Positions 39,001 to 62,265 of a stretch of 64,000 bases of DNA are shown here, piece after piece. This stretch comes from Yuukianura sp. NJ FZ-2021 (taxonomy: Eukaryota). The notes under the pieces were generated by a model, which saw only the letters and a list, made by a program, of their open reading frames with translations, did no database searches and was not told the DNA's origin. The DNA is taken from positions 744,001 through 808,000 of the forward strand of contig CM102289.1 in the NCBI GenBank assembly GCA_046563655.1, in the 5' to 3' direction. The position numbers and the translations under genes were made by a program. Numbering within the stretch: position 1 is the first letter of the stretch; each line of letters begins with the position of its first letter.

Positions 39001-42000
39001 TAGTTTGATTAAGTATATAAACCACTTTTGTTTGATTGGTTTCGTTATTTAGAACTTAATTTAGCGTTATTTGCGGTTGTTTTGGTAGTGTTTTTAATTT
39101 GTTTCCACCCTTTCTTATCAAAATGTTCATACCCCGCGGGCAAAGCTCCGCCCCTTTGGATTCTTCCATTTCGTCCATTTCTTCCACTGGATATCCAGCC
39201 GTGGATGAAATGTCGAAAAAGTGGATATCCAGCAACACTGGTGACCACTAAAAACTTTTCAGTGATCAGCGACGATTTTCAGTGACCATCAAAAGTGTTT
39301 AGTGGTCACAAATGATTCTTCAGTAATCACTGGAAGATCACCCCTGTGTAACAAAGCAGAGCTGTGAACGGGAACATTTTGGAAACTTTGCCTTACTTCA
39401 ACTTTTTCTCACGTGACACTTTTTTTCTTTCTCTAAAAACAAATTCAAAAGTTTTGGAGTAGAGTTCTGACCTATAGCGGTACTACTACTAGGCTCTTAA
39501 AAGTGACAACATTGGTTGAAGTAAGGCGACATCCCATATGTGTATACAAAACCTTCTTTGTATGTTGGAGTGACTATTCCTCAGAATCCTTGGTTATGCT
39601 TTTTAACCATCACAGTTTTGAGGATTTTAGACACTTACTTTTGCATACGGTAGTTGTATCACATTAGTTGAAGTAAGGCAGTCCCGCATGTATTCAAACA
39701 AAACTTTTTCTTTTGTGTTTTTTTCAGTCAAGGTTCAAAAGAGTCGAGTCAGTTTCTGGAGCAGGGTCACTGGTTCGTGTCTCTGTACAACGATGACAGT
39801 GACGGGCAGGAGGTTGTGTTTGGCCTCAGTTTGTCCGAGGACATGACTGAAGGTTGTCCCAACGGCTGCACAGGAAATGGTCAATGTTCCAATGGACGAT
39901 GTCAATGTAATCCTGGATTTGGATCCGAAGATTGCTCTTCTAGTAAGACAAAAAGCCACTCATAATTCCTATTTCCTCTAGAAAAAAGAGAAAAAACCCG
40001 CTCTTTTTTTCGGATTTACTTCCACAACTGAACATCTCCTCCATCCGGTTCACCCACAAGGAGTTCCTTCTCAGAAAAAGACATTCCAGCCACTTGCGTT
40101 GTCAAAATTTATAGACCTATTTCTTTTCTTCTCAAAAACGAATGGCGTGGCGACCGAGAAGGCAGACTACTTCATTCCATTATTTCGATTTTCAGAAAGT
40201 CAATTTTGAAAAGAAAGAAAAAAAAGAGGCTGACTATTCCTCGGATAGAGCGGAATGCAATTTCAACCACATTTTTATCCTGCCGAAAAGACTTTTAACC
40301 CGGCTCTAAAAAAGCAAGTTTTTGTAAACTTTTTCTAGTTTTTATGTTTGTTTTTTTTGTGTTTTCCCTCCAGGCGTTTGTCCAGTTCTGTGTTCTGGAC
40401 GCGGAGAGTACATCAACGGAGAGTGTTCCTGTAATCCTGGATGGAAGGGAAAAGAATGCGAATTGCGACATGAGGAGTGCGCAGTGGCAGATTGCAGTGG
40501 ACATGGCAAATGCGTCAACGGAAAATGTTCGTGTGGCAGAGGATACAAGGGAGATTCATGTGCAGAAGGTAAATTCCTGACTTGTGATTCGTTGACACTT
40601 AATTTAGACATCTTAGTTACGTTTTTACCTAAGATTAGTTTTATAAAAACGTTTTGTTTTCGTTTTTCTTTATAGTTGACTGTCCTCATCCTACTTGTAC
40701 TGGACATGGATTCTGTTTGGCGGGAACTTGCATGTGTAAAAAGGGCTGGAGAGGAGGCGACTGCTCTGAGCCGGACAATGAGGCCCTGCAATGTCTTCCA
40801 GACTGTTCAGGTCGTGGGACATTCAACTTGGACAGTCAAGCATGTGTTTGTGAACTGAAGTGGACTGGAGAAGATTGTTCCAAAGGTAAATCATTAAATT
40901 ATTTCGAAATTTCAGAATTTCGCTTTCAAAATTTCGAAATTTTGATGATGAAAAGTTCTAAATGCCTCTAATTCAATTATTTTCAGAACTTTGTGACACT
41001 GACTGCGGTCCAAATGGAGTTTGCATCGGACGGAGCTGTCAGTGTTCCGAGGAATGGTCAGGCCCCCTCTGCAACCAACGTGTTTGTGACAAGCGGTAAG
41101 TTCAAAATGTGTTAAAAATTCAAAAGTAAAATAAAATTTTAATTTTACTAAAATAGAACAAAATTTTGATCTTCCCGCCTGTTTATAGATGTAGTGACCA
41201 TGGTCAGTGCAAAAACGGAACCTGCCTGTGTGTCACCGGTTGGAACGGGAGACATTGTACCCTTGAAGGGTGCCCCAACAGTTGCAGTGGCCATGGCAGT
41301 TGCAAGGCCAACATGGAAGGACTTTGGGAATGTCGATGTCACAATGGATGGACCGGACCCGAATGTTCCATCAGCATGGAACAAAACTGCAACGACGGAC
41401 AAGACAACGACAAAGGTTCGAAATTTCACTTCTCAACTTTCTCTTTTTCAAATTGAAAACGTTTTTGAAAATGAACTTGTCGTTTCAGACGGACTGACAG
41501 ACTGTGAGGATCCGGAATGTTGTTCTCAACCGTCATGTGAAAAGAGCCAACTTTGCGTTTCTGCCAAGAAACCGCGTGACATCCTCCTTCGAAAACAACC
41601 GCCGGCCCTCACGGCCTCGTTTTTTGAAAAAATGAAATTCCTCATTGAAGTAGACAGTTTGCAGAGTTATGCAAAGCCGGAGGCGTTCAATGGCAGGTCA
41701 GTCTTTTTAAAAACGCTTTTCAAAAAAGTTGTCCTAATCCTCACTCCTGCGTTTTTGCTGACTTTGTGCCCCTGTCTAAACACTCACCCCAAGTGGCTCC
41801 CTGCGCGTCGCCAACTCATTCTTGAGCTAACTGTCCTTTCTCTTGTTTGTATTTTACTGTGCTGCTTTTTAATGACTGTCTAACAAATTAGTGTCATGTG
41901 GACTCACTTCATCCAAAGGTAAGTCAAACCCTGCTATTTGATGTTCCAAAAATCCATCTTCCTTTTCAAAATTTCGAAAACAATAACAAAAAAAGTTTGA

Positions 42001-45000
42001 GAAACGTCAATCTAACCTAAAAAAGTTCAAAAAAAGATATCACTTGTACCGAGACTATTTCCACCGAATTTCTAGCAACATTTTTTAATAACTTTCTATT
42101 TTTGTGTTGCAGTCGCAGTGGAGTTGTGCGTGGCCGAGTTGTGACACCAAACGGAAGTGGCCTTATGGGCGTTCGGGTTTCTTCTACATCACCGTCGGAA
42201 CCACTCGGCGGTTTTACTTTGACTCAAGACGATGGTTGGTTCGATTTGATGGTCAACGGTGGCGGTGCAGTCGTGCTCCAATTTGGTCGGAATCCATTCA
42301 ACCCCAAAACTCGCACCATTTTCGTACCGTGGAACGAAGTTGTCGTGATTGACCGTGTCGTCATGGGAACCAACGACGACAGAACTTTCCGAACCCAGTC
42401 TTGTGACGCCCATGACTACGAAACCATGAAACCTGTTGTCTTGGCAACCTGGAAACACGGTTTCCAAGGAAACTGTCAAGGACCGACATCGAGCCTGATC
42501 TTACCCGAATCTCAAGTTGTTCAAGAAAGAATCCGAATTCCTGGCACAAATGTGCATTTGATGTACCATTCTTCACGGGCAGAAGGCTACAAAGCTACGA
42601 TCAAACTTCAACTGACTCCGGAATCCATTCCTAGCAGTTTGCGCCGCGTAACTTTGAAAATTACGATCGAGGGCGTTTTGTTTGAAAAAGTTTTTGAAGC
42701 GGATCCGAACATTCAGTACACTTTTGCCTGGAATCGACTCAATGTGTATCGTCAACGTGTCCATGGCATTGCCACGGCAATTGTCCATGTTGGATATACT
42801 TATGAAAATTGTGTCGACACAATCTGGACTGTGGAAAGCACGACATTGTCTGGACATGACATGACAATTTCTGAAATTGGTGGCTGGAATCTAGATATTC
42901 ATCATCGTTACAACTTTCATGAAGGAATTATCCAAAAAGGCGATGGATCAAACATTTATCTCAAACATAGACCGCCCGTGATACTCACAACGGTGGGTAC
43001 TGGCTATCAGAGACCTCTACATTGTGGCGAAGATTGTAACGGAATCGGAGCGAAGCAGAAACTACTGGCAGCAGTTGCTCTTGCTCCAGCATCGGATGGA
43101 ACACTTTTTATCGGAGATTTTAACTTGATCCGAAAACTGAATTTGGACGGAACCATTCAAACTCTTGTCCATCTGAAGTGAGTCAGCTGTTTTTCGAAAA
43201 CTTGAAAAAATTTGATTTTTTTTGGCGGGGTTTTTAAAAGTGTGTTTTTTTTGCAGTACAACTCGAGTGTCCTACCGATATCACATGGCTCTGAGTCCAG
43301 TGGACAACATTCTTTACATTTCTGATCCTGAGAGCCACCAGATCATCCGTGTCCGTTCGTTAGCCAATGACAGCCCTCCGATCGAACCGGAACAGAATTG
43401 GGAAGCTGTGGTGGGTTCCGGTGAAAGATGTTTGCCCGGAGATGAAGCTCATTGTGGCGACGACGGTTTAGCAAGAGATGCGAAATTGGCTTATCCAAAG
43501 GGCGTGGCGATCTCCGTCGACAACATTCTCTACTTTGTTGATGGAACAAACATTCGGAAAGTGGATCGGGATGGAATAATTTCCACTTTGATTGGAAACC
43601 ATCAACACAAATCTCATTTTACACCAATTCCATGCGAAGGAAGTCTCAAAGCAGAGGAGGTATTTTCAAAAACTTAAAAACTCAAAACTTTGTTTAAAAA
43701 GTATTCACACCTAGTAAGCCTCTAAATAAGAAACTAGATTACGACGCCCCTTTGAGTGGAAGTTTGTAGTTTTTTTAAAATGGGAGTGGAAGTTTGTCGT
43801 TTTTTTTTAAACGGGAGTGGAAGTTTGTCCTTTTTTAAAACGGGAGTGGAAGTTTGTCGTTTTTTAAAACGGGAGGTTCAGCCAGAATTAAAGAGGGTTT
43901 TTAATATTATTTTTAAAAAACGACAAACTTCCACTCAAAGGGGCGCAGTAATCTTGTTTCTTATTTAGAGGTTTAAGTGTACTTCGCCCCTTTGAGTGGA
44001 AGTTTGTCGTTTTTAAAGAGAGTTAAAGTGGGTTTTTAATATTATTTTTAAAAAACAACAAACTTCCACTCAAGGGGGCGCAGTAATCCTGTTTCTTTTT
44101 CTTATGTAAAGGTTTAGATGTAATTTTTTTTTGTTTTTGATTGTAGGTGCACTTGCGATGGCCAACTGAAGTTGCAATAAATCCACTCGACAACTCTCTC
44201 TACATCATAGACGATCATATGATCCTGAAATTGACCGATGACAACCGGATTCGTGTCGTTGGTGGGAGATCGATCCACTGTCCGGCCCCACCCGGTGGGT
44301 ACGATTCCGATTTAGCCACTCACGCAAGTCTCATTTCACCCCAGAGCATGGCTTTTGCACCGAACGGAAACCTGTACATTGCCGAATCAGATGGACAGCG
44401 TACCAGTCGTGTCCGGCTTATCACCACCAACGGAAGAATTTCACATTTTGCTGGAGCCGAATCCAAGTGCAACTGTCTAGATCCCGGTTGCTCCTGTTTC
44501 GATGACGACCACTACCTAGCTGCAACTGCCAAATTCAACACCATTTCTGCCGTTGCCATGACACCCGACGGAAATTTGCACATCAGTGACCAAGGCAACT
44601 ATCGACTCAGGACTGTCCAGGCACTCATACCGTCGTCAACTGCTCCAACGGACTCCAAAGTCTATGAAGTTTACTCTCCAGAGACTCAAGAAATTTACGT
44701 TTTCAATCGTTTCGGTCAACATGTTGCTACGAAGAACATTGTGACGGGAGAACGTGTTTACACGTTTCTCTATAACGTGAATATGTCCAACGGGAAGTTG
44801 AGTAGTGTAACGGATTCTGCCGAAAACAAACTGCATATACTCAGAGACTATTCACTTATAGTCAAGTCCATTGAAAACTCGCATGCCCAGAAGTTCAACT
44901 TGCGAATGTCACGGAAAAACATGCTGCATGAGTTCTCTACTCCAGAAGGACATAACATTACATTCAACTACCACACAGAGTCTAATGCCAACGGACTGCT

Positions 45001-48000
45001 CAAAAGCCGGCAGGAATCGACCGGTAAAAGTTCGGTTTACACTTACGACGAATACGGCCGTTTAGTTCAAGCCGTTTCACCGACTGGTCAGCTGTTACGA
45101 CTCGAATTTGAATTAAGCAAACGTGGCGCCAGAGTGCTCGTGACAAGAGATGAAGCTCTTCCAACTTCGCTGCTTATCAAAGGTTCGTCGGTATTTGAAC
45201 GACGCGGGAAATCAGAGCAAGTCGTATCGGTCGAACCGGACGGTAGCGTGAGAATAGCGTTTCCATGGGGACAAGCTCTGACGACTGAAACGATACCGTA
45301 TAATGTTTTGGGCGAAATCAGTCCGGTACTGAGCGACAGTTTTCCGGTACCGGGAAAGCAGAAGACCGAAGTTGGAGCCGAATTGGTGAATCGAGTTGAA
45401 TGGCGGTACATTACGAGAAAGGAGGGTCGTGGCAGGAATAAGCAAGTGATTCAAGTCGACAAAAAGCTGAGGGTCAATGGAGAAAATATGGTAACCCTGG
45501 AATACGACCGCGAAACGAAATCCGAACTCGTTTTTATCGGAGACCGTGTGGAAATTCTGAACGTGACCTTTGACCCTCTGGGGAGACCTTTGCGGTGGGC
45601 ACCAAGGTACGTACAAAACAAAACTCCATTAATTGAACTACGCCTCAACCTCTAAATAAGAAACAAGATTACTGCGCCCCTTTGAGTGGAAGTTTGTCGT
45701 TTTTAAAGACCCTCTTCAACTCTGGCTGAATCTCCCGCTTTAAAAAACGACAAACTTCCACTCAAGAGGGTGAAGTAATCCTGTTTCTTATTTAGAGGTT
45801 GAGTTGTGCCTAAAAATACCTAAAATTTGAGCTCTATTGTAGAATTTACGGTATTTTGAATTTTTCAGTTTCAATTTTGCCGCCGTGGACATGGAGTACG
45901 ACCGATTTGGCAGACTTGTCGGATGGAAGTGGGGCAGATTAAGTGAAACTTTTGAGTACGATCGTTCTGGAAGGTTATCTCATCGCCAGCATGCGGATGG
46001 CACTGCGTCGACTTACGTTTTTGTGGACTCCTTCACTACCCTGGTGAGAAAACGTTTTTAAAACGTTCAAAATTTCGATTTTCCATGCTAGAAAGTGGGC
46101 AAAATACCTAACAATTTCTGACAGTCATTGTTAGCCACATAGTGAATTCAGACCGTAGTATAAGGTAGAATGACGATTCCTCAGAATCGTCGGTTACGTT
46201 TTGTAAGCACAATTCTGAGGATTAGTTGATCTCCATATCGCGTTTGAATCCACGAGTGTCGCTGAACCTTACTTCAACCTAAAAACTTTATTCTGATTTT
46301 CCAATTTCTGATTTCTCTGACTTTTTGTCTGACCTAGCCTCAGAAAATGAAAACAGCTGGGGGGAGTGACTATTTGTTGGAATATGACGGATCCGGCGCC
46401 TTCGCTTCTTTGACAACTCCAAGAGGCCATATTCATACGTTTGGTGTTTCTACTTCAGTTGGTCACTACGAATTCAACTACAAATCTCCGAGTAGCCGTG
46501 ATGCATTTCGAGTTCAGTTCAACGACTATGGTCACGTTACGTCCGTTCTGTATCCATCCAGCGGTGGTCGCATCACGTACGTCTACACTGCTGGTGACAA
46601 AGTTGAAGCAATTGTGGCTGGACTAAGGACGATTCAGTTTACTTATCACGAAGGACTCGGATTAGTGAAAGTGGCAGAAATTGAACAATCTTCATTCGAG
46701 TGTAAAATTGAATACAAGTATCACGGTGGAATGATGAAAGAAGAAAAGGCCAAGTTCGGTCCGAAGTCTGGTCTGGCCAATACGCAAGTCAAATTTCAGT
46801 ATGATGGGAACGCGAGACTTACAAACGTGGAAACTGAAATTGGCGGCAAATCTGTTCAGAGCTTATCAATCAAGAAGACAGGAAATTCTGGACTGCTAGA
46901 AAGTGTCAACGATTTGAGATTTATTGAACCTGGAGTGGAAAATCCATTCAATCGCTCAATTGCTTCCGACGTCGCCAAAACGTTTTCGCGAGTTTTGGAA
47001 CGTGATGAAGTAGGAAGATTTTTACGTCAAATGATCGTCATCCGCGGAAATACTGTGTTTCGACTGGAATTGACGTACAATGACCGTGGAAGAATTCAAG
47101 AACGGAAGATGACTATTGTAAATTCACCTTATGTTGACGAAGTCCAGTACACTGCTGATGGTCAAGTGTCGGAGGTCACGGGCTCAGGTCACTGGAAGTA
47201 CGTTTATGACGAAAATGGAAACGGAATTCAAATGATGGAACAGCGCGAAAAAAGTTCTTTGATTTATGACTCTGGTGATCGTGTGATCCAAGTTGGCGAA
47301 TTACTTCGCTACACATACGACGCACGCGGATTCTTGGTTCAACGCGGAAATGAAAAGTTTCAGTACGACGATAAAGGCTTTCTGTTACACGTCGTCAAAA
47401 ATCAAGCTTACCGGATTTGGTACGCCTACGATCACCAGGATCGACTCGTGTCTTGGAAAGACGATCAAGGAAACGTAACGCAGTTTATTTACGCGAATCC
47501 CGAAAATTCACGTCTTATTACCCACGTCCATTTTCCCGCCACTTCAAAAACTATGTTGTTCATCTACGACGAATTTTCGACGTTGATTAGCCTCGTTCTG
47601 ATTGGTTCAGAAGGTGAAAGTGCCCGGTACTACGTCGCAGCTGATCAAAACAAATCTCCCCTTGCGTTATTCACTGTGCACGGAACTTTAGTCAAAGAAA
47701 TACACAGAACTCCGTTTGGAAAAGTAGTTCGATCGAGTGCTCCCGAAATCTATCTTCCTATTGGCTACTACGGTGGAATCGTCGATGGACATACCGGACT
47801 TGTTTTTCTTAACGGAAGGCCGTATGATCCCACAATTGGGCAGTGGATGACCCCCGACTGGGTTAACTTACCCGCCACCCTCCGAACTCCCACAGACGTG
47901 TTTACGTATAGATTTAGACGTAATGACCCCATCACCCCACCCCATCCCCCAATGACGTCACGCATGAACTCACTCAGTGATTGGTTGAATCTGTATGGAT

Positions 48001-48937
48001 TTCGACCAGAGGCCATTTTTGGCCAGAAGTACACTCGACCGACTTTCTTCGAGCCAAAAGTGGACAGTTCCTTGGGGCCAGAGTTTGGCACTGCCAGTGC
48101 ATTGGCATGTACAGCAGAAACGACCAGTTCTGGCTACCTCACGATGGGCTTCCAGCAGCAGTCGAGACTCAACCCAGAGAGGATTCTAACTAAAGTGCCA
48201 GAAACTGAGTTTTTGAGCAAATTGGCCAATAAGCGATCTCCATTCGGTACCGGTTTGTTGCTATCCAGACTCAAAGGGGGCAAAACTCTTGTGAGTACGG
48301 TAGAAAACAGTGTTGTGCAGGGCGTCCTCACTTCAGTTCTCAACGGTTCGTTGTTTGTGGACTTCCGATCGAGCCATGCCAGTGCCTATCACTTTGTCAA
48401 AGACAATCCGCTCAAACTCCGAGACGATCTTGAAGATCTGAAACGACTCGGCGGATACAACGTTTCGCTTCATGAAGCCGAAAACGGCATCAAGGTAACC
48501 GTCAAATTTTCCGGAAAACTTACAATTTTGAGCGAATCCCGCCGAAATTTAGAAATTTTGAAGATTACTGATTCTGAATTTTTGTATTCCAGGAGCTGAA
48601 ACTGTCCAGTGGTGACACGAGCATAACCGTTCGGTATGGTGCGGATGTTGACGAAGAACTGTCACGACTGATCAAGCATGCTCACCGGAGAGCCATTGAA
48701 CGTGCGTGGGAGGAGGAACGGAAGTACATATCGATGGGACTGGATGGGAGACGACCGTGGACAGAAGAAGAGAAGGAACAGCTTCTGCTCAAAGGCGTCG
48801 TCCATGGTTACCGGGCAACCGAATTTTTGAGTGTCCATGCTTTCCCGCAACTCGCAGAAGATCCCAACAACATCCTGTTTCTGAGAGATTCCCGGCGGAA
48901 ACGCAGAAACAAATCAAACAGTCGTCGAAGACACTGA
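1..48937 (+). CDS. Ten-m: Teneurin-m (Ten-m/Odz), multi-exon, 5' end outside window
   Basis: Phase-consistent exons: <1-87, 29111-29509, 34774-35041, 35171-35355 (TM helix [23 protein letters not shown]), 35947-36144, [36289-37584 cassette], 37794-38062 ([27 protein letters not shown]), 38189-38223, 39728-39942, 40374-40568, 40676-40885, 40987-41095, 41189-41415 (EGF repeats), 41489-41696 ([12 protein letters not shown]), [41892-41918], 42113-43177, 43257-43659, 44147-45606 (NHL propeller), 45869-46043, 46338-48494 (YD/RHS shell), 48593-48937 (Tox-GHH-like, TGA). Motifs match recalled Drosophila Ten-m. Confidence 0.95.
853..945 (+). mobile_element. tRNA-derived SINE-like element
   Basis: GGATAGCCTAATTGGTAGAG (A box), GGTTCGAGTCCC (B box), then a T-run; no intact cloverleaf. 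Confidence 0.55.
4615..5030 (+). repeat. Degenerate minisatellite, core CAACAGAAAC
   Basis: The core recurs at roughly 20-nt spacing. Confidence 0.8.
6056..6297. mobile_element. hAT-type MITE
   Basis: TIRs CAGGGATGTCAAGCATAT / ATATGTTTGACACCTCTG with a perfect 8-bp TSD ATAATCAG (6048-6055, 6298-6305). A degenerate duplicate of the right end follows at ~6320-6411. Confidence 0.85.
7200..7442 (+). repeat. Degenerate minisatellite, core AGAACAGTAGCA (~22 bp)
   Basis: About 10 visible units. Confidence 0.85.
10601..10710 (+). repeat. 18-bp tandem repeat AAAGTGGTAGGTGGTAGG
   Basis: About 6 units; explains the spurious VVGGRK ORF. Confidence 0.85.
11339..11771. mobile_element. Degenerate TIR element rich in TCCGTCC motifs
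   Basis: Imperfect terminal inverted repeats (GGACT..GACGGATA.TAAT / ATTATTATCCGTCC..AAAGTCC) and many internal TCCGTCC motifs. Confidence 0.5.
12925..13310 (+). repeat. ~120-130-bp tandem repeat x3
   Basis: GCGGGAGG..CAGTGATTTT..TTTTTACATAAAGTTTTAGC..AATACGCGC repeated three times. Confidence 0.8.
16615..16894 (+). repeat. Direct repeat copy 1 (~280 bp) flanking the GH25 gene
   Basis: aaaaagtacaaagaagtgaagatggcacag...gacacttgaagcagaaactg aligns end to end with 18902-19180. Confidence 0.93.
17046..18303 (-). CDS. Secreted GH25 muramidase (Ch-type lysozyme), 3 coding exons, ~290 aa, nested antisense in the Ten-m intron
   Basis: Exons 18303-18042, 17739-17407 and 17323-17046 join with phase-1 GT-AG introns. 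Signal peptide [20 protein letters not shown]25 motifs [29 protein letters not shown] (catalytic DxE), [17 protein letters not shown]. Confidence 0.88.
17790..17945 (-). mobile_element. tRNA-derived SINE-like element in GH25 intron
   Basis: A-box-like GATAGCTCAAGGGTCAGAGC and B-box GGTTCGAATCCC, plus a tail TTCAC..TCAAGCCAATGT shared with the copy at 33612-33752. Confidence 0.65.
18527..18593 (-). promoter_or_regulatory. TATA box + arthropod initiator and short 5'UTR exon of the GH25 gene
   Basis: Minus-strand TATAAA at 18593-18588 and TCAGT Inr at 18562-18558, about 30 nt downstream. Donor GTAAGT at 18526; acceptor TTTTCAG ending 18312, 8 nt before the ATG. Confidence 0.6.
18902..19180 (+). 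repeat. Direct repeat copy 2 (~280 bp) flanking the GH25 gene
   Basis: Same-orientation diverged copy of 16615-16894, with scattered substitutions and small indels. Confidence 0.93.
21858..22022 (+). repeat. ~39-bp tandem repeat
   Basis: ACTTACAGTTCTGGCGTACTTTTCGTTAGTATGTAAC, about 4 units. Confidence 0.75.
24957..25490 (+). repeat. ~41-bp periodic array with conserved core TAGTTACTCCCTCCGTTTTTGT and variable spacers
   Basis: About 14 copies of the core. Confidence 0.85.
28810..29085 (-). repeat. Tandem pair (~145 bp) of B-box-containing SINE-like units just upstream of a Ten-m exon
   Basis: GGATTCGAACC..ACCCC..AGC.TACCA..GCCTTATACCACT.TG.CAGTTTCC occurs at ~28874 and ~29017. Confidence 0.7.
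33612..33752 (+). mobile_element. tRNA-derived SINE-like element, same family as 17790-17945
   Basis: GATAGCCCAACGGTTAGAGCACTTCC..GGGTTCGAAAC..TTCACTCCGTCCTCAAGCCAATGT. Confidence 0.65.
35608..35726. mobile_element. Short palindromic MITE-like hairpin
   Basis: TCGTTCTG..ACCGCCAAGGAAATT / AATTTCCTTGGCGGT..CAGAACGA. Confidence 0.65.
38362..39480. mobile_element. TA-flanked TIR element (Tc1/mariner-type MITE) with internal 41-bp tandem repeats
   Basis: 32-bp TIR CCGCTATAGGTCAGAACTCTACTCCARAACTT (1 mismatch), with TA on both sides. Confidence 0.85.
38841..39240. mobile_element. hAT-type MITE nested in the TA element
   Basis: TIRs CAGTGTTGCTGGAT / ATCCAGCAACACTG with a perfect 8-bp TSD GTGACCAC (38833-38840, 39241-39248). 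Confidence 0.9.
43715..44100. mobile_element. Palindromic MITE plus adjacent partial copy
   Basis: TIR CCTCTAAATAAGAAAC..CGCCCCTTTGAGTGGAAGTTTGT / reverse complement, spanning 43715-43975, with internal GAGTGGAAGTTTGTCG repeats. A second partial copy lies at 43985-44100. Confidence 0.8.
45644..45803. mobile_element. Palindromic MITE, same family as 43715-43975, opposite orientation
   Basis: CTCAACCTCTAAATAAGAAAC...GTTTCTTATTTAGAGGTTGAG, with ~60-bp arms. Confidence 0.85.
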
Positions 48938-49580
48938 AAGGGCCCTTAAGGGTCCTTTCAACTTTTGGCGCCAAGGGTACTTCGAGACATCTAGTCAACA
49001 GCTTCACCGTAGGCACTCATTGACATCTTCCGAATATAAGAATTCTCAAAATCAAGAAAATCAACTTTTGCGCGCCATTTTTTACATGCTAAAACTAACT
49101 TGGGGTTTAATCATAACGTTATAAAATAGTAAAAGTAATTTATACTCCTGCTGTGATGTTAGTCTATAAGAAACTTTATTTAAAAATTGAGTTATTTTTA
49201 TTGTTAAGGTTAGATTAAAACTAACTTTTAATTAGGTTATGCAGATATAGTAACCTAATCTCCAAACCAGCAATAATCATCTTACCCTATGGACATTAAG
49301 GCTAAACTTAACGTTAGTTTTTAACTAAAACAGTCAAGAATTTTAACTGCCATTTGCCATGCTGAGATGGTTTCTAGCGTTTTTTTTTTCAAATTACTAA
49401 AAGTGTTTAGAATTTAGGACGAAAAGTTTTTGAAAGCTAACTGTTGTAAATTCCATAAGGCTTATTTTAGTTACAATGTAATCAAAACAGCAGAGATTGT
49501 ACAGAACATTTAAGTCTTAAATTTCTCCATGTTAAAGATTATGCTCATGTGCATAAATTTCATCGCGATGAAAAGCATTT

Positions 49581-49586: not shown

Positions 49587-50032
49587 ATCTTCGTCAAATT
49601 TCATCAAATTTTCTCTGTAGAGTCAAAATTTTGGACTGGGAAAACTGAATTCTCAAACTTTTAAAAAAATTCTGAGTTGTACTTTGCTCTACTTGGAACG
49701 AATTGAATGCTTGACTTATAAAAAAAGTCGTACTAAAAATGTCTAAATCCAAAAACCTGTTAATTATTTTCTCAAATGCTGTTTTTATTTTGTGTACGAA
49801 TGTGTATTACGTTTAAACTTATGTTTTAATGACTATACGTTACGAGAGGAAGCTTGCGTTCATTTAGCATTAAGTGCTTTTACTGTATTTTGACACCTGA
49901 GACGACTAATCTTAAACTAAAGCTTAAATCTAAAGAAATAGTGGAAATTGCACTTAAGGGGCGAACTGCTGCATTTCTGTTAAACGAGCTTTTTTGGTAT
50001 TAGAATTAGTATTTACTTGTAGAATATTTTAC

Positions 50033-52283
50033 TTAGGAAGATTGTATCGACGGAATATACTTCGAAAGAGGCGATTGTTTAATCCAGCAATAAGTCCTTC
50101 CAGAGGAACGGTGGTATGAATGTTCTGCCGTAGTAATGGCTGAATCGTGGTACTTCATCAATACTTCCAGATAGTCGTCCTTCTGAAACTACAAATTATA
50201 TTTTTATTTACATATGTTCTTCTTTTTCTGAAATGTTAGGACTAAGTTTTGAAAGGGAGTCAAACTCACGTCATCAGAATCCTCCTGATCGAAAACGAGT
50301 TTTTGAAGGCGTCGGAGTTGCCCAGTTTGGCTGGCGTAAATAACGCCCTTCCAGCACTCAATGCTGCCGTTGAAGAACTTCAAATGTGTCAGCACTAGTT
50401 AAAAAAAAAACAACATTTGTTAATACACGCACTTTAAAATGATTCATTCATCCATAAAAAATTAACATTGTGTTTTAAAATTTTATGCATACCCGGAAAA
50501 TTGCAAAAGGAGTCAATTGAATCCGAAGTTTTCCCAGGTTCTAGGAGAGACTTGGTAATCATGCTGTGTGAGATGTATTGAGCTCCATTAGTTAGGTGGT
50601 TCCAGTGTTTAAGTTGAAGGTCACGGTCCCCATCAGGTCCACTAGCATCGGAGTCGACATAAATGTGCAGTTTCTGGACTTTTGGAAACCGGAAAATCCC
50701 TTCTAATGTTGTAGAAGCCACGTACAATTGAGTAACGTTGGGGAGTATTAATGGCCAATGCTGACGTTCCTGCTCCGTTTTCAAATAGATTTTTGCGAAT
50801 TTTACATTTGGAAAAATGCATCCAGCGAAGATGAATTGATCGGTTGTTCCACCATAAATGCAGTCGAGCGTTGTGAGGGCTGGAAATTCCATCGGTTGGC
50901 GCAAGGCGACAGAATGGAATGGGAAATAGAACGCCAAACATGTAATGTTTGCGAGGGAAGGGAGAGGAAGTGTAATTGGACCAAAACGGTGCCTAGGGCC
51001 ATTGCCGTCCATTGGGAAGTCCACACACTCCGCACATTCCACAACAAGTCTGCGCAACGATGTCAGTTTTTGAATCCAATTTGAAATAATTTCCCCTGTT
51101 TGTGGTACGCTTCCAAAACTGGGATCGCAGGGCCTCAAGAATAATTCCAAATCCAGGATTTTGCAATTTGTTGAAATTGCAACCAAGTTTTCAAGTTCAT
51201 ACATATTCAAAGCCGGAAAATGAAGAAGCACGGTCAACTTTTGGATGAGGAGGGGTCCTTTGATTCTGTAGATCTTGTCTATGATGTTTGGAACAAAAGC
51301 TGGGTATGATGTGTCATGATCGTGTATATCTCCACAATTTTGGATTGAAAAGTTCTTAAGATTTGGAGCTTTTTCCAAAAGATCCAAGAGACGGGAATCG
51401 TATTGGTCTTCAGAATCGTAGCACCCGATGTTGAAGTTGATTGTTTTTAAACTTTTTAGTACAGGGATTTCCACATCCACAGCTTTGGACATTTCCTCTT
51501 CCTCTTCCTCAAATAGCACTGTCACAACTGGGTACACGATTTCTTCTACATTTTCGAATTTGTCAAATAGGATTTGGATGTTGTTTAAAAGTAAATTCTC
51601 GTGTGGCGGTTGAGGAGTGACGCCGATCCAACACCAAATTCGCCAGGATTTCACAATGCTTCCAAATTTGACACAAAACTCCTCCAACGGCTGCCCGTAC
51701 GTCAAGAGATTTTTGTTAAATCCAAACTCTTGGAACGGAACGACTGTTTTGTTTCGTTCAAACACAGAAATAAATTTCACAATGTCCGAGTCTTCCAGAA
51801 AGTTCACCCGAAACAACTTTGGGAAGCATGTCGTTGAAAGTTGATTGAATCGGTGGTTCACCAGGCGTAACTCTGGTATTTCTTGTTTTCTCAAACAGCC
51901 GATTATTTGAAGCAGAATCTGAAAGACAAGATTGTTGTTAGTAATCACATAGATTATTTATGTCAAATCGGAGTTCAAGATTCAATTTTACGCTGAGAAG
52001 TCAACAAGAACGTTTCTAATTTTAACTTTTTTTAACTCCAAATCTTGTTCAGGATTTATTTGGAAACTCATTTTGACATGCTGAGGCTTGTCGGAAATTC
52101 TTGTTTCGTTATGAATACGTTATGATGATGAACATTAAAATAACGTTATTCAACGGAATGCAGATTTAAAAAACAGTGGCTTCAAACAAACGTTTAATTA
52201 TTGGCTTCCAGCTCGAAGGTTTAGTTTTGAATTTAATAAATTAGGAATCAAGTTGACCTTACTTCATTTGGAATGGAATCCAT
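50033..52283 (-). CDS. F-box / LRR-like protein (may be the 3' part of an EF-1beta fusion)
   Basis: Exons 52283-52263 (MDSIPNE), 51918-50493, 50394-50270 and 50182-50033 (TAA). The spliced N-terminus MDSIPNEILLQIIGCLRKQEIPELRLVNHRFNQL fits the F-box consensus; it is followed by LxxL-type repeats (LKSLKTINF, APNLKNFSI, FPALTTLD, LPNVTQLYV). Confidence 0.75.
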
Positions 52284-52430
52284 CGTGGCAGTGCAAGACA
52301 AACGACCGGCATCACGAAGTAGTTCAACGAATGAACTCGATGTAGCAGACTGATTCTGTACTTCATTGTGATTACTTAACATTCCTGGAGTAGATGGAAA
52401 ACGAACCCCACTTCTTAAAGCAGAAAAACT

Positions 52431-53565
52431 GATCTCCACAGAACGCACAGCTTCTTCCAGGTCTAATAAACAAAAAATCAATTCAGCCCGCAAAAAAAAT
52501 CATACGGAAAATCTGGTTTTGTTGCTCACTCTTCATATCTGTCTCGTCATTCCACGGTTTGACGACATCTAGGATGACGTTTGACTTGGCAATGGACTCA
52601 GGCTCTTTGCTCTTATTCTCTGCACAGGCTTTGAGACGATCTTCTCGAATCTTGGCCGCCTCGGCATCCTGCGAACCATAAATTACAGTCTCAATTCTCC
52701 AGGCAATCCTTTTATAAAAAATATTACCTCTTCTTTATCCGATGCAAACAAATCAACATCTTCATCCTCATCAGCAGCACCGTTATTGACAACGACAAGA
52801 GCAGCTGAAAAAGTAGCAGCACATGCTCCTGATGCCCCGAAGCTGGCTTTCAATGCTCCGAAGCTCTTGATGTGATTGTACCATCGGAGGACATGAGGAT
52901 GTGAAGAATGCGGAGTGGATTTGATGGCATCAAACGTTTTGGTATCAGCACTGCTCGGAGAATACCTGTTCAGAATCAGCCAGTTGTTAATCTGTTGGAA
53001 ATTCCAACTTGGGGAAAAATTTTACTATCGTGGACCATTTTTGAAAATTCTGAAAATTTTTCTCTGAAGTCCCTATGGACCCCTGATAGTAAAAAGCAAA
53101 AAAAAAATTTCCGGAAATCAAAAAAAAACTAACCTAACCTAACCTAACATCGCGCCTTCGGCGCGGGTAATTGACCAGTGACTCTTTTGTTTTTGACTTT
53201 TTTTGAAAAATTCGTTCAGAATCGTGTTCAGCATCTTCAAATTAGTCTAAAAACCGATTTTCATCGATATCGGGGAAAAAAATATTTTTTGAAATTTTGA
53301 AAAAATAATTTTTTTCGTAAAATTTTTTTGATTTCCGGAAAATTTTTTTTTGTTTTTTACTATCAGGGGTCCATAGGGACTTCAGAGAAAAATTTTCAGA
53401 ATTTTCAAAAATGGTCCACGATAGTAAAATTTTACCCAACTTGGAATTCATGTGCGAAAATTAGCAAATTCTTAATCTAAATTACCCTTCGACGTAGGAG
53501 TGGGACTTGAGATGTTCATTGAGTTTAGCCAATCCAGCAGCTGTTGAGACGTCACCGAACGACAT
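52431..53565 (-). CDS. eEF1B: Elongation factor 1-beta copy, truncated in the GEF domain and open in frame into the F-box gene
   Basis: Exons 53565-53486 ([27 protein letters not shown]), 52965-52728 ([23 protein letters not shown]), 52668-52530 ([20 protein letters not shown]) and 52462 onward ([10 protein letters not shown]). Homology stops before the usual DGLxWG motif. Confidence 0.85.
53000..53448. mobile_element. Foldback/MITE with ~130-bp TIRs in EF-1beta intron 1
   Basis: 53000-53129 and 53321-53448 are near-perfect inverted repeats. The centre carries (CTAAC)4 and a CGCGCC-TTC-GGCGCG hairpin. Confidence 0.85.
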
Positions 53566-53769
53566 GTTGCAGAGGAAAGGAAATTAAATGAGAATAAAAT
53601 TTTCTCTGCAGGCTCAAAATTTTAAAACAATTTCTCAAACTTTGGGACGGATTGGATACGATGGCCGGCTGTTTTAGAATTCCGGCTTGGAATCAGAGAA
53701 TTCCGTGAATTAGACACAGCCGTACAGAAATATACACGGGATACACGGGTGGCGTCAGGCAAAAGGAAA

Positions 53770-54420
53770 ATCTTTGTATCCGCACAGTGTAACCACACTC
53801 GCGGCTAAATTTTGTGGCTACACTTAATACTTTATGTTGGATTAATTAGCTCAAGGTGGCTACAGAAGTTGCCACTTAGGTGTAACTACCTCTTATTTCC
53901 AGCGGAGATAGCAGGGGGTGGCTACACTGTGTGGATACAACTACGTTCATTAATGCTTAGCTTCCCTTCAGAAATATGTCGGTTGATATAAGGAATACCC
54001 ACCGATGTTGCAACCGCAACATGTACCCACCCTGACTATGCTTGTGGCTACAAGGTAAGGCTACCACTTGTGTCGCAACTCATGGGCATGATAGCCCAAA
54101 CTATGCTGAATTAAAATGGCAACATTAGGTTGTCACAATGCGCAGCCAACAGCAGTACACAGAAGTAGCTACGCCAAGTGAGTACAGACATGGTTGTATA
54201 CCTCACTCCAATCTTGCATTCCTGTTTGTTTAAAAATTCTGGGTGAAGTAAGATTTAACCAGCGCTTATCACAAACTGTAGCCAATTCTACATTTTGTGT
54301 GGTTTCAATCGGTGGCTACACCTTGGTGACAACATTTTAGCCAGCCTCGCCTTACAAAGCCAAATCTGAAGTGGCAACATAGTAGGAAAGCCATGTATTC
54401 TGGCTGCGAAGTGACTACAG
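53770..54420. repeat. GTGGCTACA-motif-rich repeat with an internal inverted repeat
   Basis: TTGTATCCGCACAGTGTAACCAC (~53774) pairs with GTGGCTACACTGTGTGGATACAA (~53918). The motif recurs to ~54420. Confidence 0.55.
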
Positions 54421-54523: not shown

Positions 54524-55740
54524 CTTGTGAGCTCCGATTTTTCGGAACTTTCCGCAAACTGTCCAAGAAGAGGAGTTTCTGGACTCCTGGACACATACAA
54601 GAACATCCTCCTCCACTTTCTGGAAAGTGAAAAGCTCAAGGACGATTCCGAGTAGCAAGTAAGTATCAACATTTCATTTGAAAGCTTTTCAATATATTTG
54701 AAGTTAAAAATAAAATCGTATCTGGTTGGATTGGAATGTAGGTTTTGCAGGCAGCTTTAGCATGGCTTATCACTCAATTGCTCATCGTCGCATCGTCGTC
54801 ACGTATTCCAAGTGCTGAAGACTATTCGACTCGCTTTAATTCCTTCGAGACTCCTAGAACACTGTGTGCAACAAATCCAAGATAAATCAATCCAAATTGC
54901 TCTAAAAGAGGCTTACAGAAGGACTTTACTTTTACGCAGATGAGGTTCCCTAGTTTGTCTCATTACGCAAACACGCAAAAGGTACGCAACTTTAGATTAA
55001 GTTGCGCAATTTTCAAAATTTCAAGACGTTTTTTGTTTTTCCAGCGCGAATAAGTACATCTACCTAATTGGAGGATCACGCAAGCAGTTGGGACATGGGT
55101 GGAAGCAACTGTCCGAAAGCACACTTTCAGCGTGTGACTGATTTGATACATTTCAGTAAGCATTTTCACCTTGTTACATTCATCTTCAAGCAATTTTTGA
55201 CGAAAAGTAAAAATTTCGTTTTTTTTTAAGAAAAACGTGGACGAGCATTGCACCTATGAACATTGGACGAATTACACCTGGTGTAGCAGTTCTCGGTAAA
55301 TAAGGCTACTTTACGACCAACGATTTAGTGTCAATTAAATCGTTAAAGTGTTGGTTAATTTCTTTGTTTGTGCCAATTTTTCAGAAGGACTAATTTATGT
55401 CGTCGGCGGAGAGCGAGAGTCAAAGATCTTAGCAAATAGAGAAGTAAGGATTCAAATTCAGAAGATTTTAGGTTGAGCGATTAAGTTGTACAATTTTTGT
55501 CACTTTGTTGCAGGTTTACAGTCCGCAAGAGAATACTTGGACACGAATAGAACCGATGATCATTCCCCGGTGTGCTTTTGGCCTCACGACGCGGGAAAAC
55601 GAACTGACGAATGGATCTTTTATCTTTGTTTTTGGCGGTTGGGTGGGAGAAAGAATTGGCGTGTCAATTGAAAAGTACGTTTGGTATAGAAACGAGTGGA
55701 TCATGATTGGAGAAATGGAAGAACCACGGTGCGGAATGGG
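54524..55740 (+). pseudogene. IPP: Fragment of BTB-BACK-kelch gene (IPP/KLHL27-like), disrupted
   Basis: BACK-like ILLHFLESEKLKDDSE*Q (TAG 54653-54655) and VLQAALAW. Kelch repeats APMNIGRITPGVAVL, GLIYVVGGERESKILAN, PMIIPRCAFGL, FGGWVGERIGVSIEKY, EPRCGMG. Has stops and frameshifts, no BTB start visible, and ends mid-exon. Confidence 0.75.
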
Positions 55741-58700
55741 CTGGTGGCTGGTTTACTTACTACGGACTTCTTGGACATCGTCTGGAAGGCCAAAGTGTCT
55801 GCTCGATATGCCCAACTTCAAGTGACCTAGAATGAGGTCGAAGCAGTTCAAGTTTTTAGAGAAATCATGCCGATCCTGGAGGGCATCAAAGATCCAGTTT
55901 GTTTTTACTTTTATTGCCAATGCATCGGCGTATCTCCCGAAATTGGAATGGGTAGAGGAATTGCTACAATTTGGGCTCAAAAGAGTCGAAGACTGCAGTG
56001 GAACGCTTTTTGGAAAAAGGCTTCTGAATACAGTGAAGAAGTTGTACACTTTTCAACAAGCTGTGCCTGGAGGAGGGATTGAGCGCTGGAAAGAATTCAG
56101 CTTGCCAAACACTTCAATGTTTCTCCAGTGCTGCCAATTTCTGCAAAAGGTAAGCAGTTTTCAGATTTCACACTTCAGTTTTTCTGTCTTAGTTTTCAGA
56201 TTTAAGTTTTCAGAATTTGATTTTCTTTCATACATTTTTTTGATGTTTTTGTTTATGTTTTTTAGCTTCTGTTCAATGAGTGTGAAATCATCTGGTTGCG
56301 ACACTGTGACGAATTCCTTCCTGAAATTCAACTGTCTCAATGCGCCCCATTTTATCGAACTCTCTTTTAGCATCGACTGTACTCCAACTCGGCAGTATCT
56401 CTCTTCAATACTATTTTCCCTCATGCATTAGACAAATGTGAGCATAATGCTGCTGGAGATGGTGACGGGGGATCCAAGAACCCTGCTTTGGTTTACCTTT
56501 TGACCAGTCAAATCAGGTATCTGGAGGGGGAGATAGCTTGTCCAAAGGAGGGGATTGACTTTGTGGAAGTTCTGGTCAAGGCAGTGGAAGAAGAGGAGGC
56601 CAAGTTACAGGAGGCAAGTGATTTGAATGAATCAAGACATTTGGAACGTGCTGCCATTTGCACAGAGATACTGGACAAACTAAGAACAATTCTCCAAGCA
56701 TTCAACGAACTTTCGCAACTTTACTCCAACCACAAGATTCGGATTCTCTTTGACAAGTACTTGGACGTAAGTAATCGATTTCTAAACGTTGTTACTATTT
56801 GATTCCCTTGTGACGAATTACTTGTGTAATTACTTGATTACTGATGTAATTACATAAATACTAATGATGAATTAATTTTAGGAACCGAAGTTAGATGTGA
56901 TCAACTTGATGGTTGGTGTGATTTGGGGAAAAGAAGAAGTCGAGTACTTCCTGAAGGATTTTTTGTTTCCGTTTGCGAAGCGCCATGACCTCAACGTCGA
57001 TGAAATCATTGAGCAGCACATTGGAGTAAGTTCAGAACATATTTTATTTATAGTATTTATTTATATATGTTGTATTTACATAATTTATTTATATATGTTG
57101 TATTTATATAATTTATTTATATATTTTCAGTTCCTTGCCAATGAAGTGACTTACTACATGCGAGCAGAGTCAATTCCATTTGAAAATCGTGTTGTCACGC
57201 TAACAGACAACATCGAGTCGACCATCGTGCGCCTGCGCTGTGTGCACGCCTTGTCCCAAGCATGGCCAGTCCCTTGGCGTCCTCCGATGGAAGGAATTGT
57301 GGCCAGAGCTTTGCAGTTGAGCGTGGAAGGGTATCCAGAAGCAGCTATTTTGCAAAAGACGATTCAAATTATCAAAGTTCAAGTGCCTTACAGATGCCTT
57401 CGCTACAAGTACAGCCTCTCTGCCTCAAAATGTGTCCATGGATACCATGTAGTTGTAAGTTTTCAATTATTTTTTATCTTTATCCTGCGAGAGAAGTTTT
57501 TTATGGTCGATGCAAGTTTAGATTTGTGTTGGACTTGGACTCCAACGCTGCTGTAGGAATTGAAACTAAAGCTGGCCTAAGACAGTTCGTCCTTGATTCA
57601 CCCCTCCAATTAGATTAACATTCTTTTTCTTTTCTTGAGTCTGTAAATACTCTGTAAAAACTCATTCTGAGTTTTGTGGCATTATGCTTGTCCATAATCC
57701 ATTTCCAATGTCCTTGATAGATACATTTTGTGGACATTGACTGTGGAGAGAGATGCCAACGTTGCAAAGTCAATGACTCTGCTTGTCTATTCAGTCGGTT
57801 TCTTGCTCTTTCCCAGTCAACTTCCAAGGAATTCTAGAAAGTTGTAAATAGTTTTTCCAAGATTTTTCCAACTTCATCACGAGAATAGAAAAGTGAACAG
57901 GTTAGGTTTTAAGTTAGGCTAATCTAAGTGTTAGGCTAAGGTTTAAGGTTAAATCTAATTGGTTTCTGTTTCTGTGTTTCAGCACACGATCAAACGGATT
58001 TTGAAAGCTGACAAACCGGAAGCCTATAAAGATTGTTTGGAACTTATCAAGCATACTGGAAAATGCGATGCAGAGGGAGTCCGGAAGTTGAAATTGTGGT
58101 ACGAACTTTCTGAAACTGCAAAACCGTTGGACAAAATTGTGGAAACCGATTTTTCAGAAGAGTTGGTTCAACGATTGCTCAACCGAATTTTGGAACAGTT
58201 TCGACAGGTTAGCCAAAATTTTTGGGTTTCTTTATCTTTTCATGTGAATTTATGAAAACTGAGCAAATTCTTGAAACTTTTTGAAATTTTTAGGCTCCAG
58301 ATCTGCTCAACAAAGAAAATGAACCGTGGGAGAGATACACCGAATGTGGAAAACTGCTTGCCAATCGAATACAGGATCACAAGGCGCTTCAGTTTTTCCA
58401 ACTACGCAAGATTCTCAAAAATTTTTGGTCCACTGACATGCTCTACTCCAAGGAATATCCGTTCAGCGTCCTTCGCATTTTGTTGCAAGGTATGACAAGG
58501 TCAAAGGTCAAGTTGATCTTGACACATAACAAAGATTCAAAAAATTAAAAAAAAAAGTTTTGAGATTTTGCCTTTTCAAAAAAGTTTTATGAATGATTTC
58601 ATTTTTTCAGAAAATCGGGATGCGTCTGGACCAGAAATGATCCGCCTGTGTCATCGATTGGCTCAGATCAGCTTTTCTCATGTCAAGGACATTCTACTCA

Positions 58701-61551: not shown

Positions 61552-62265
61552 AAGTTTGGATCCAAGGAAGGAAGGGAGCTACTGGACTACTGCCGGAATT
61601 GACAGCTTTTGGAGAATCGCTGCTCCGATTCGGAGACACTGAATTGTTCGCTCGAATATTTTCAGCGATTCACGTGGAGTATTTGAATCAAGCATCTTAC
61701 GCTCCTCTGAAGATGATGGCTGAGAGGATTCAAGGCGCCGCGGCGGTGAACCAGCTCAAGAACACTTTGCTTGCAAATATCGACCAGTATCAAGTGGAAG
61801 AGACCAATTCGTAAGGAGGAATTCTACGCCGATGCATCGGCTGTTGATTTGAAATTCCAAAATTTGAATTTTTGCTAAACTTGTGATTTTTGTTTGGTTT
61901 GGCATAGACGTGTTGTGAATCTGGTCAAAGCCTTACAAGCTGCTGGACTGCAGTTGAACGCTTACGCTCTGCGACAAAGGAGCAAATTGAGGCTAATTGC
62001 TAAACTAATTGAAATGAACAAGTATCCTCTAGCGTCTCAAACACAAACTGCTCTGGTCTTCAGCTTCCGTGATGGACCGTCATGGTCACTCATCCTCAGA
62101 GAGTATATTGCTCAAGCATCAACTGCCGAACTCAAGACGCTGCTAGAATCGCTGAAGAAAATCAATGAGCTTTGGGTTGTTCCGGAATTCAAAGAGGCTT
62201 GGCTCAAAGTTTCCGAAAAATTTCCAAACTTCAGGCACATTTGTCCCATTCCGCTCGGGAACTGA
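61552..62265 (+). pseudogene. rod: Rod/KNTC1 C-terminal fragment (Rod_C region) ending in TGA
   Basis: Two exons (61552-61810, ~61908-62265). LKTLLESLKKINELWVVPEFKEAWLKV...ICPIP resembles the recalled KNTC1 LWQVPYFSKAWQRV...CP motif. Confidence 0.65.

Follow-up and report, generated by a model that had tools for sequence, protein, structure and literature searches.

We analyzed a 64,000-nt stretch of DNA from the springtail Yuukianura sp. NJ FZ-2021 (assembly GCA_046563655.1, contig CM102289.1, positions 744,001 to 808,000 of the forward strand; hereafter "the window"), whose minus strand carries, between positions 50,033 and 53,565, a gene with a 5′ part resembling elongation factor EF-1beta (eEF1Balpha) and a body resembling F-box/leucine-rich repeat (LRR) proteins. 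The gene comprises seven exons, at 53565–53486, 52965–52728, 52668–52530, 52462–52263, 51918–50493, 50394–50270, and 50182–50033, with lengths of 80, 238, 139, 200, 1426, 125, and 150 nt in that order. As a script check of the borders showed, each of the six introns has GT at its 5′ end and AG at its 3′ end, the phases are compatible, and splicing gives a frame of 2358 nt, made up of 785 codons followed by TAA and uninterrupted by stops. This seven-exon, phase-matched, stop-free frame of 785 residues had been described in an earlier note made from the sequence, and it was recovered unchanged when borders and splicing were rechecked. Both parents are joined in one open frame with usable splice sites, as is characteristic of a chimeric gene, and the chimeric structure is real.

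The 5′ part of the gene follows EF-1beta exon by exon until the homology breaks off. Exon 1 (53486–53565, minus strand, as are all features of this gene), which is immediately preceded by a pyrimidine-rich stretch, holds the EF-1beta-like ATG and the first 26.7 codons; 25 of its 27 residues are identical to those of P0001, the closest full-length EF-1beta. Exon 2 (52728–52965) completes the EF-1beta N-terminal domain, adds an Ala-rich spacer, and opens the acidic region; its residues 1–43 align with residues 30–72 of 5dqs_D, human elongation factor 1-beta (E=1.4e-8). Exon 3 (52530–52668) continues with the central acidic region and the first strand of the guanine nucleotide exchange (GNE) domain, matching 2n51_A, which covers the eEF1Bdelta acidic region and first exchange-domain strand (phmmer, E=9.7e-12). 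The last EF-1beta homology is found in the first 32 nt of exon 4 (52431–52462), where 8 of 11 residues are those of P0001 (ending in RSVEI, against RSIEM in P0001). The homology then ends at 52431, in the middle of the exon, as the earlier note had placed it and where tblastn alignments of five full-length EF-1beta proteins also stop. In a search for longer proteins, 57 of 147 candidates reached E≤0.001, and 56 of these carry a precomputed EF1_GNE annotation, the exception, P0005, having no Pfam domain. Profile searches of the window gene, proposed in the earlier note for the EF-1beta acidic region, the GNE domain, and the F-box, gave a mixed outcome: EF-1_beta_acid (PF10587) was weakly supported in exon 3 alone, below its cut-off (E=0.0032, 18.2 bits, cut-off 25.7), the motif being divided by intron 2; EF1_GNE (PF00736) had no Pfam match in any of the seven exons; and the F-box also stayed below its cut-off, as detailed further down.

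Residues 159–216 of P0001, i.e., the GNE core of ~58 residues, have no counterpart in any frame of the 64-kb window by tblastn, the best alignment being at chance level (E=0.73). Because most of the GNE domain is missing, exchange activity must be lost: judged by its sequence, the EF-1beta-derived piece is truncated and would be unable to act as an exchange factor, in agreement with the loss of guanine nucleotide exchange factor activity that had been predicted. Docking on eEF1Bgamma is the role of the EF-1beta N-terminal domain, and the retention of this docking region, also predicted, is borne out by the matches of exons 1 and 2. Across its 163 codons the EF-like part is free of stops and frameshifts, and it is 63–64% identical to P0001–P0003, which are themselves 66–80% identical to one another. 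Of 49 columns without variation among 13 real EF-1beta proteins, it keeps 42 and misses 7, compared to 0–5 missed by the real proteins (leave-one-out counts). Five of the seven changed columns fall in residues 121–163, adjoining the truncated exchange domain, together with a unique extra V, the product of a one-codon insertion in exon 3 seen in none of the 13 real proteins. This pattern of changes fits a relaxed constraint on a dead exchange-domain stub next to a largely intact docking domain. Thus far, the window piece is like EF-1beta (eEF1Balpha) and EF-1delta in its N-terminal domain, acidic region, and first GNE strand, and unlike EF-1beta in lacking the last ~58 GNE residues, in its 7 of 49 altered invariant columns and extra residue, and in running on into an unrelated gene. 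Neither a second copy of the unit nor the missing GNE exons were found elsewhere in the 64-kb window.

Between the two halves lies a 49-codon linker (52284–52430), which is open and in the fusion frame and leads directly into MDSIPNE, as had been claimed. The hybrid exon 4 had no match in a PDB sequence search at E≤10. A candidate origin of the linker as a frame-shifted GNE remnant was excluded, tblastn in all frames finding nothing there. Its codon-usage score is 0.082, a value reached or exceeded by 31% of 381 chance open reading frames (ORFs) of 49–75 codons. Of the 49-codon stretches in the whole window, 12% are stop-free, which puts the chance of an open, in-frame linker at ~2–4% (12% × 1/3 for the frame match), and this is suggestive, not decisive. 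By eye, the linker contains one in-frame and two out-of-frame ATGs, and it probably served earlier as the 5′ leader of the F-box-like gene.

Downstream of the linker, an ATG and six further codons (MDSIPNE; 52263–52283) are followed by a phase-0 intron. Exon 5 (50493–51918) would encode the rest of an F-box-like motif and a leucine-rich, repeat-like body, and it is followed by exon 6 (50270–50394) and exon 7 (50033–50182, with the TAA at 50035–50033), the latter placed on the basis of its splice sites and the open frame only. When the translations of the seven exons were compared with Pfam, no F-box or LRR match was obtained at E≤1. With the first 100 residues of exon 5, F-box-like (PF12937) was matched at E=0.046 (13.9 bits, cut-off 24.3) and F-box (PF00646) at E=0.22, in both cases along profile positions 8–35 or 8–38 only, the first 7 positions being those that would fall in the MDSIPNE mini-exon. 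Neighbors in the ESM Atlas were mostly F-box clusters (scores of 0.94–0.95; 17 matches share the PF00646/PF12937 set), and a crude self-made leucine-rich motif occurred 7 times, compared to 1.28 ± 1.12 (maximum 6) in 1000 shuffles. The best match of exon 5 in a PDB sequence search was an unrelated DNA-repair protein (E=0.24), a word-indexed protein search with exon 5 left none of 4895 candidates at E≤0.001 (261–832 residue range), and HMMER against 1.84 billion representative proteins returned a single relative, P0058 (E=1.2e-6, 30% identity). By sequence comparison, this part appears close to an orphan and fast-evolving. The window protein is similar to F-box/LRR adaptors of SCF (Skp1-Cul1-F-box) ligases in having an F-box-like motif near the N-terminus and, after it, units that resemble leucine-rich repeats, and its family is similar to F-box families in being multi-copy and fast-evolving, F-box being among the expanded gene families in Collembola (PMC10087712). 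It differs from these adaptors in its sub-threshold PF12937 match, in the absence of any LRR family at E≤1 and of a PDB relative, and in the single sequence relative returned from the 1.84 billion representatives. The "F-box/LRR" label given in the earlier note is reasonable but weakly supported, every curated threshold being missed.

The single relative, P0058, is encoded on a 3991-nt metagenome contig, L001, which provides a view of the family lacking the EF-1beta part. Residues 218–730 of the spliced window protein align with L001 positions 879–2585 (tblastn, E=2e-22, 23% identity), the alignment thus reaching into exon 6. Within L001, an ATG and six codons (MEHIPNE) are followed by an intron of 100 nt with a GT donor and an AG acceptor, identical in position and phase to that of the window mini-exon, around which 22 of 27 nucleotides are the same in both sequences (by eye). 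An in-frame stop is located 17 codons 5′ of this ATG, and no EF-1beta-like sequence better than E=0.066 was found over the 3991 nt, including the 763 nt upstream of the ATG; in the window, the corresponding distance takes in EF-like exons 4 and 3 as well as a portion of exon 2. Because L001 shares the start and intron without EF-like sequence, the MDSIPNE Met is best read as the ancestral start of the family and the EF-1beta piece as a later addition in one lineage, and the same comparison suggests that the fusion is derived and relatively young. The young chimera put forward in the earlier note is supported to the extent that L001 lacks the EF-like piece, but what is found is a multi-copy family (see below) and not a single young gene. 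As for the relative itself, P0058 (L001 1230–2651) was called on eukaryotic DNA as a bacterial-style ORF, translated introns seem to account for its first residues and for a segment close to its end, and L001 appears to carry one intron absent from window exon 5. P0058 shows weak LRR matches (LRR_14, LRR_4, and LRR_At5g56370; E=0.006–0.04). A possible counterpart of exon 7 in an L001 ORF, similar by eye, was dropped as it gave no BLASTP alignment.

Next, we evaluated the copy number of the unit. The stretch is contained in five sequencing runs, four of which (X1–X4) come from one sample of organism A and one from organism B. Contigs of X1–X4 were placed on 49800–53010 at ≥85% identity, and summed contig depth was used as a rough gauge of copy number. 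Overall, 451, 284, 231, and 95 contigs (X1–X4, respectively) were placed on these 3.2 kb across all identity bands, covering 29–30 of 30 bins in each run, introns included. At exon 5 position 51166, letters other than that of the window had summed depths of 1923, 848, and 232 (13, 6, and 4 contigs), compared to 134, 96, and 20 for the letter present in the window; at position 52624 in EF-like exon 3, the other-letter sums were 1067, 558, and 227; and at 49962, in the 3′ flank, only 1–2 contigs were found. The whole unit, with introns and both halves, is therefore multi-copy in organism A, with an estimated 6–14 further copy-equivalents at 85–99% identity, and it reads as bounded by the gene. 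It is also present in organism B, and both halves are multi-copy at similar depth in organisms A and B. Within X1, depth was about twofold higher in the bin of the ATG mini-exon (2644) than in the linker bin (1390), and in each of X1–X3, 7–12 contigs matched 52250–52283 and diverged on both sides; this depth excess and these diverging contigs imply that only a subset of the wider F-box-like family has the window's 5′ region. Some contigs lack the extra exon 3 codon (52561) or differ from the window by 6 nt in exon 2 (52788). The parental EF-1beta gene could be among the copies that lack the extra valine. A 2-nt length difference just 5′ of the ATG, considered as a frame break in paralogues, was set aside, the contigs concerned diverging from the window at that point and thus being uninformative on copies with the EF-like part.

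Differences among the copies were then examined for signs of constraint, with length differences taken from 12 of 119 indels and from joints with known inserted letters. Among those listed, the EF-like exons have differences of 3 and 6 nt, exon 5 has differences of 33, 33, and 36 nt, and exon 7 has one of +1 nt, while the introns and the flank have differences of 1, 1, 1, 3, 4, 2, 1, 6, 6, 67, 37, 41, and 43 nt, i.e., multiples of three account for 5 of 6 exonic and 3 of 13 non-coding differences (Fisher p=0.04). The 40 listed best-supported substitutions comprise 13 non-coding and 27 coding ones. Three listed pairs of substitutions share a codon, one of which, in exon 2, is synonymous if changed jointly. 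From these comparisons, the family appears to keep its frame, while the window copy seems to be without sign of purifying selection on residues.

Taken together, these observations can be arranged into the following scenario. A multi-copy springtail F-box-like/leucine-rich family would originally have begun at the MDSIPNE Met, and a partial EF-1beta copy, comprising the 5′ leader, exons 1–3, the associated introns, and 32 nt from the start of exon 4, would have been joined 147 nt upstream of that Met. The resulting hybrid exon of 200 nt runs from the EF-1beta acceptor (52462) to the first donor of the F-box gene (52263). Were transcription to start at the EF-1beta-derived 5′ end, translation from the EF-1beta AUG would give a 785-residue protein presenting, in order, an eEF1Bgamma-docking domain, an acidic region, an inactive exchange stub of ~30 residues, the 49-residue linker, an F-box-like motif, and a repeat body. 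Amplification of the unit, or of those family members with the EF-derived 5′ part, would have followed. We infer that the EF-1beta-derived 5′ end may still drive transcription, that the fusion protein may be made, and that it could act as an SCF substrate adaptor placed near eEF1B. Since the first AUG is that of EF-1beta and the frame is open, transcription from the EF-derived 5′ end would by default lead to the fusion protein. Capturing a promoter and forming a fusion protein are thus not distinct outcomes, and the alternative raised in the earlier note, an F-box gene merely capturing a housekeeping promoter, does not stand as an explanation of its own. We consider the structural origin alone, a partial EF-1beta duplication onto an F-box-like leader, highly likely on sequence grounds. 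The complete proposal, in which a DNA-level chimera formed by partial duplication was amplified and is expressed as a fusion protein, is put forward more tentatively, at a little under even odds.

Several observations weigh against this complete proposal. All five listed runs with the stretch are DNA (none is RNA), and the contigs do not tie EF-like and F-box coverage to the same copies. The F-box and LRR assignments are all below curated thresholds, and the AlphaFold model of exon 5, built from a two-sequence alignment, was unusable (mean predicted local distance difference test score of 44.2). A start at MDSIPNE would fit the conserved Met, its favorable context, and the conservation island beginning exactly at the ATG, and the codon usage of the linker is no better than that of chance ORFs. 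These last points lead to a different reading, which we regard as rather unlikely, in which the F-box-like gene is independent: transcription would begin inside or after the hybrid exon, translation would start at MDSIPNE and yield 573 residues, and the EF-1beta piece upstream would be a relic, i.e., a truncated duplicate that is silent or gives a short product, with the open linker partly a matter of luck. Such a gene would resemble the one on L001, which has kept the start Met, mini-exon, and intron position together with an in-frame stop and no EF-like sequence. It would also be in line with the contigs of X1–X3 that keep 52250–52283 and diverge directly 5′ of the ATG, with the roughly doubled depth at the mini-exon in X1, indicating many members with a different 5′ region, and with the unremarkable linker codon usage. 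Yet a frame match combined with 49 stop-free codons would have to be put down to that ~2–4% chance, the EF-like part retains an intact frame and most invariant residues, both of its listed exonic indels are multiples of three, and the three ATGs of the linker would burden a leader starting far upstream.

The gene could instead be a dead duplicate, one of many recent segmental copies that is neither transcribed nor selected and whose open frame reflects its youth, a reading we judge improbable. Taken singly, 23 of the 27 listed coding substitutions are nonsynonymous, which is not different from the share of 0.75 assumed under neutrality (p=0.27), and by this measure the window copy may be drifting, which again counts against the complete proposal, as does the +1 insertion in exon 7, a frameshift present in part of the copies. 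A transposable-element insert in intron 1 and a 50–59-nt direct repeat bracketing the unit, as expected for an inserted segment (both described below), point the same way. Such decay is difficult to reconcile with 785 codons without a stop, with six of six intact intron borders, and with length differences that respect the frame in exons and not in non-coding sequence. Finally, an EF-1beta-like copy might have been wrongly joined to an F-box-like copy near 52431 during assembly, for which we see very little probability. The region is repetitive, 4 of the 32 listed contig pieces (of 1117) begin within 25 nt of the junction (52422–52447), and none of the 32 spans 52431 with at least 31 letters on each side, which is a further point against the proposed fusion. 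Contig ends are expected in short-read graphs where a parental gene and its copies diverge, however, and the bin 52392–52499 has depth in all four runs, none of the 15 joints (of 28) and 24 loose ends (of 184) listed falls at 52431, and an accidental join would rarely be in frame with a clean acceptor and donor reused.

The proposed fusion has parallels among known chimeric genes. Drosophila Sdic and jingwei are chimeric genes that arose by partial duplication followed by amplification, and both are transcribed. The window unit is like these in combining the 5′ part of one gene with the body of another, in the proposed conversion of a non-coding stretch into a linker, and in the multiplication of its copies; it differs in its donor, a translation factor, in its acceptor, an F-box-like gene, and in being known from DNA alone. 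Among the papers listed by full-text literature searches, none was on an EF-1beta/F-box fusion or on an F-box family with an EF-1beta-derived N-terminus. In Caenorhabditis, multicopy F-box genes have captured foreign domains (PMC12062965). If expressed, the window unit would be a clear animal case of new-gene birth by partial duplication, in which a housekeeping translation-factor module was combined with a fast-diversifying ubiquitin-ligase adaptor and then amplified, and it would offer a testable link between an SCF ligase and eEF1B along with a former non-coding sequence turned protein linker. It is conceivable, though doubtful, that a springtail lineage has in this way created a new family of about ten copies, in which an eEF1Bgamma-docking and acidic region is fused to an F-box/leucine-rich SCF adaptor; a ubiquitin ligase would then be placed on the elongation factor complex, or the docking domain used as bait, and the former leader would have become a coding linker. 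If not expressed, the locus would be an ordinary partial-duplicate relic beside a member of an expanded F-box-like family.

Several repeats are associated with the unit. Intron 1 contains, outside the coding structure, an inverted-repeat element resembling a miniature inverted-repeat transposable element (53001–53446), whose arms (53012–53126 and 53323–53437) are 115 nt long and 97% complementary, with a separate comparison giving 96% over 127 nt. By eye, its center holds a short run of TTAGG-type repeats, and an apparent 9-nt duplication flanks it. Contigs without the insert were found in X1 (1) and X4 (3), position 53000 continuing into 53447 onward with 29 of 30 letters matching (by eye). 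The whole unit is bracketed by the direct repeat mentioned above, assigned to families D2 and D3, with an upstream copy at 53594–53643 and a downstream copy at 49603–49661, ~370–430 nt past the stop codon (both minus strand; local alignment score of 47, compared to 23.4 ± 2.8 with a maximum of 31 in 100 shuffles). This repeat may mark the ends of an inserted duplicated segment of ~3.9 kb. Helitron-like or other transposon ends were not seen by eye at the unit borders, where no formal test was made, and no transposon ORF was found. Further upstream, 250–755 nt before the EF-like ATG, the 9-mer TGTAGCCAC occurs five times in one orientation on the minus strand (53814–54320) and is absent from the rest of the window (0.21 occurrences expected; five reached in 0 of 100 shuffles). 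Tandem Repeats Finder detected no tandem array at this cluster, which may be a regulatory cluster or a decayed repeat. A bacterial-type promoter scan upstream of the unit was uninformative.

Elsewhere in the window, an Rfam tRNA match (17855–17913, minus strand, 35.4 bits), not called by ARAGORN, overlaps an ORF at 17884–18327 (minus strand) with a weak Glyco_hydro_25 match (E=0.0026, below cut-off). The chimeric unit itself sits between the 3′ end of a teneurin gene and Kelch- and Rod-like ORFs that begin at 55.4 kb. Upstream of the chimeric gene, these are a Kelch-motif ORF at 55472–55822 (plus strand, E=3.9e-7) and an ORF with a weak Rod_C-like match at 61879–62262 (plus strand, E=5.6e-4). 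The teneurin gene (~42000–48940, plus strand) encodes TTR, FN-plug, NHL, YD-shell, and Tox-GHH domains, and its 3′ end (~48.9 kb) converges on that of the chimeric gene. The teneurin ORF points to a source that is most likely a springtail, distant from both Orchesella cincta and Folsomia candida: its best named matches are from these two species (57% and 56%, respectively), compared to ≤49% for insects.

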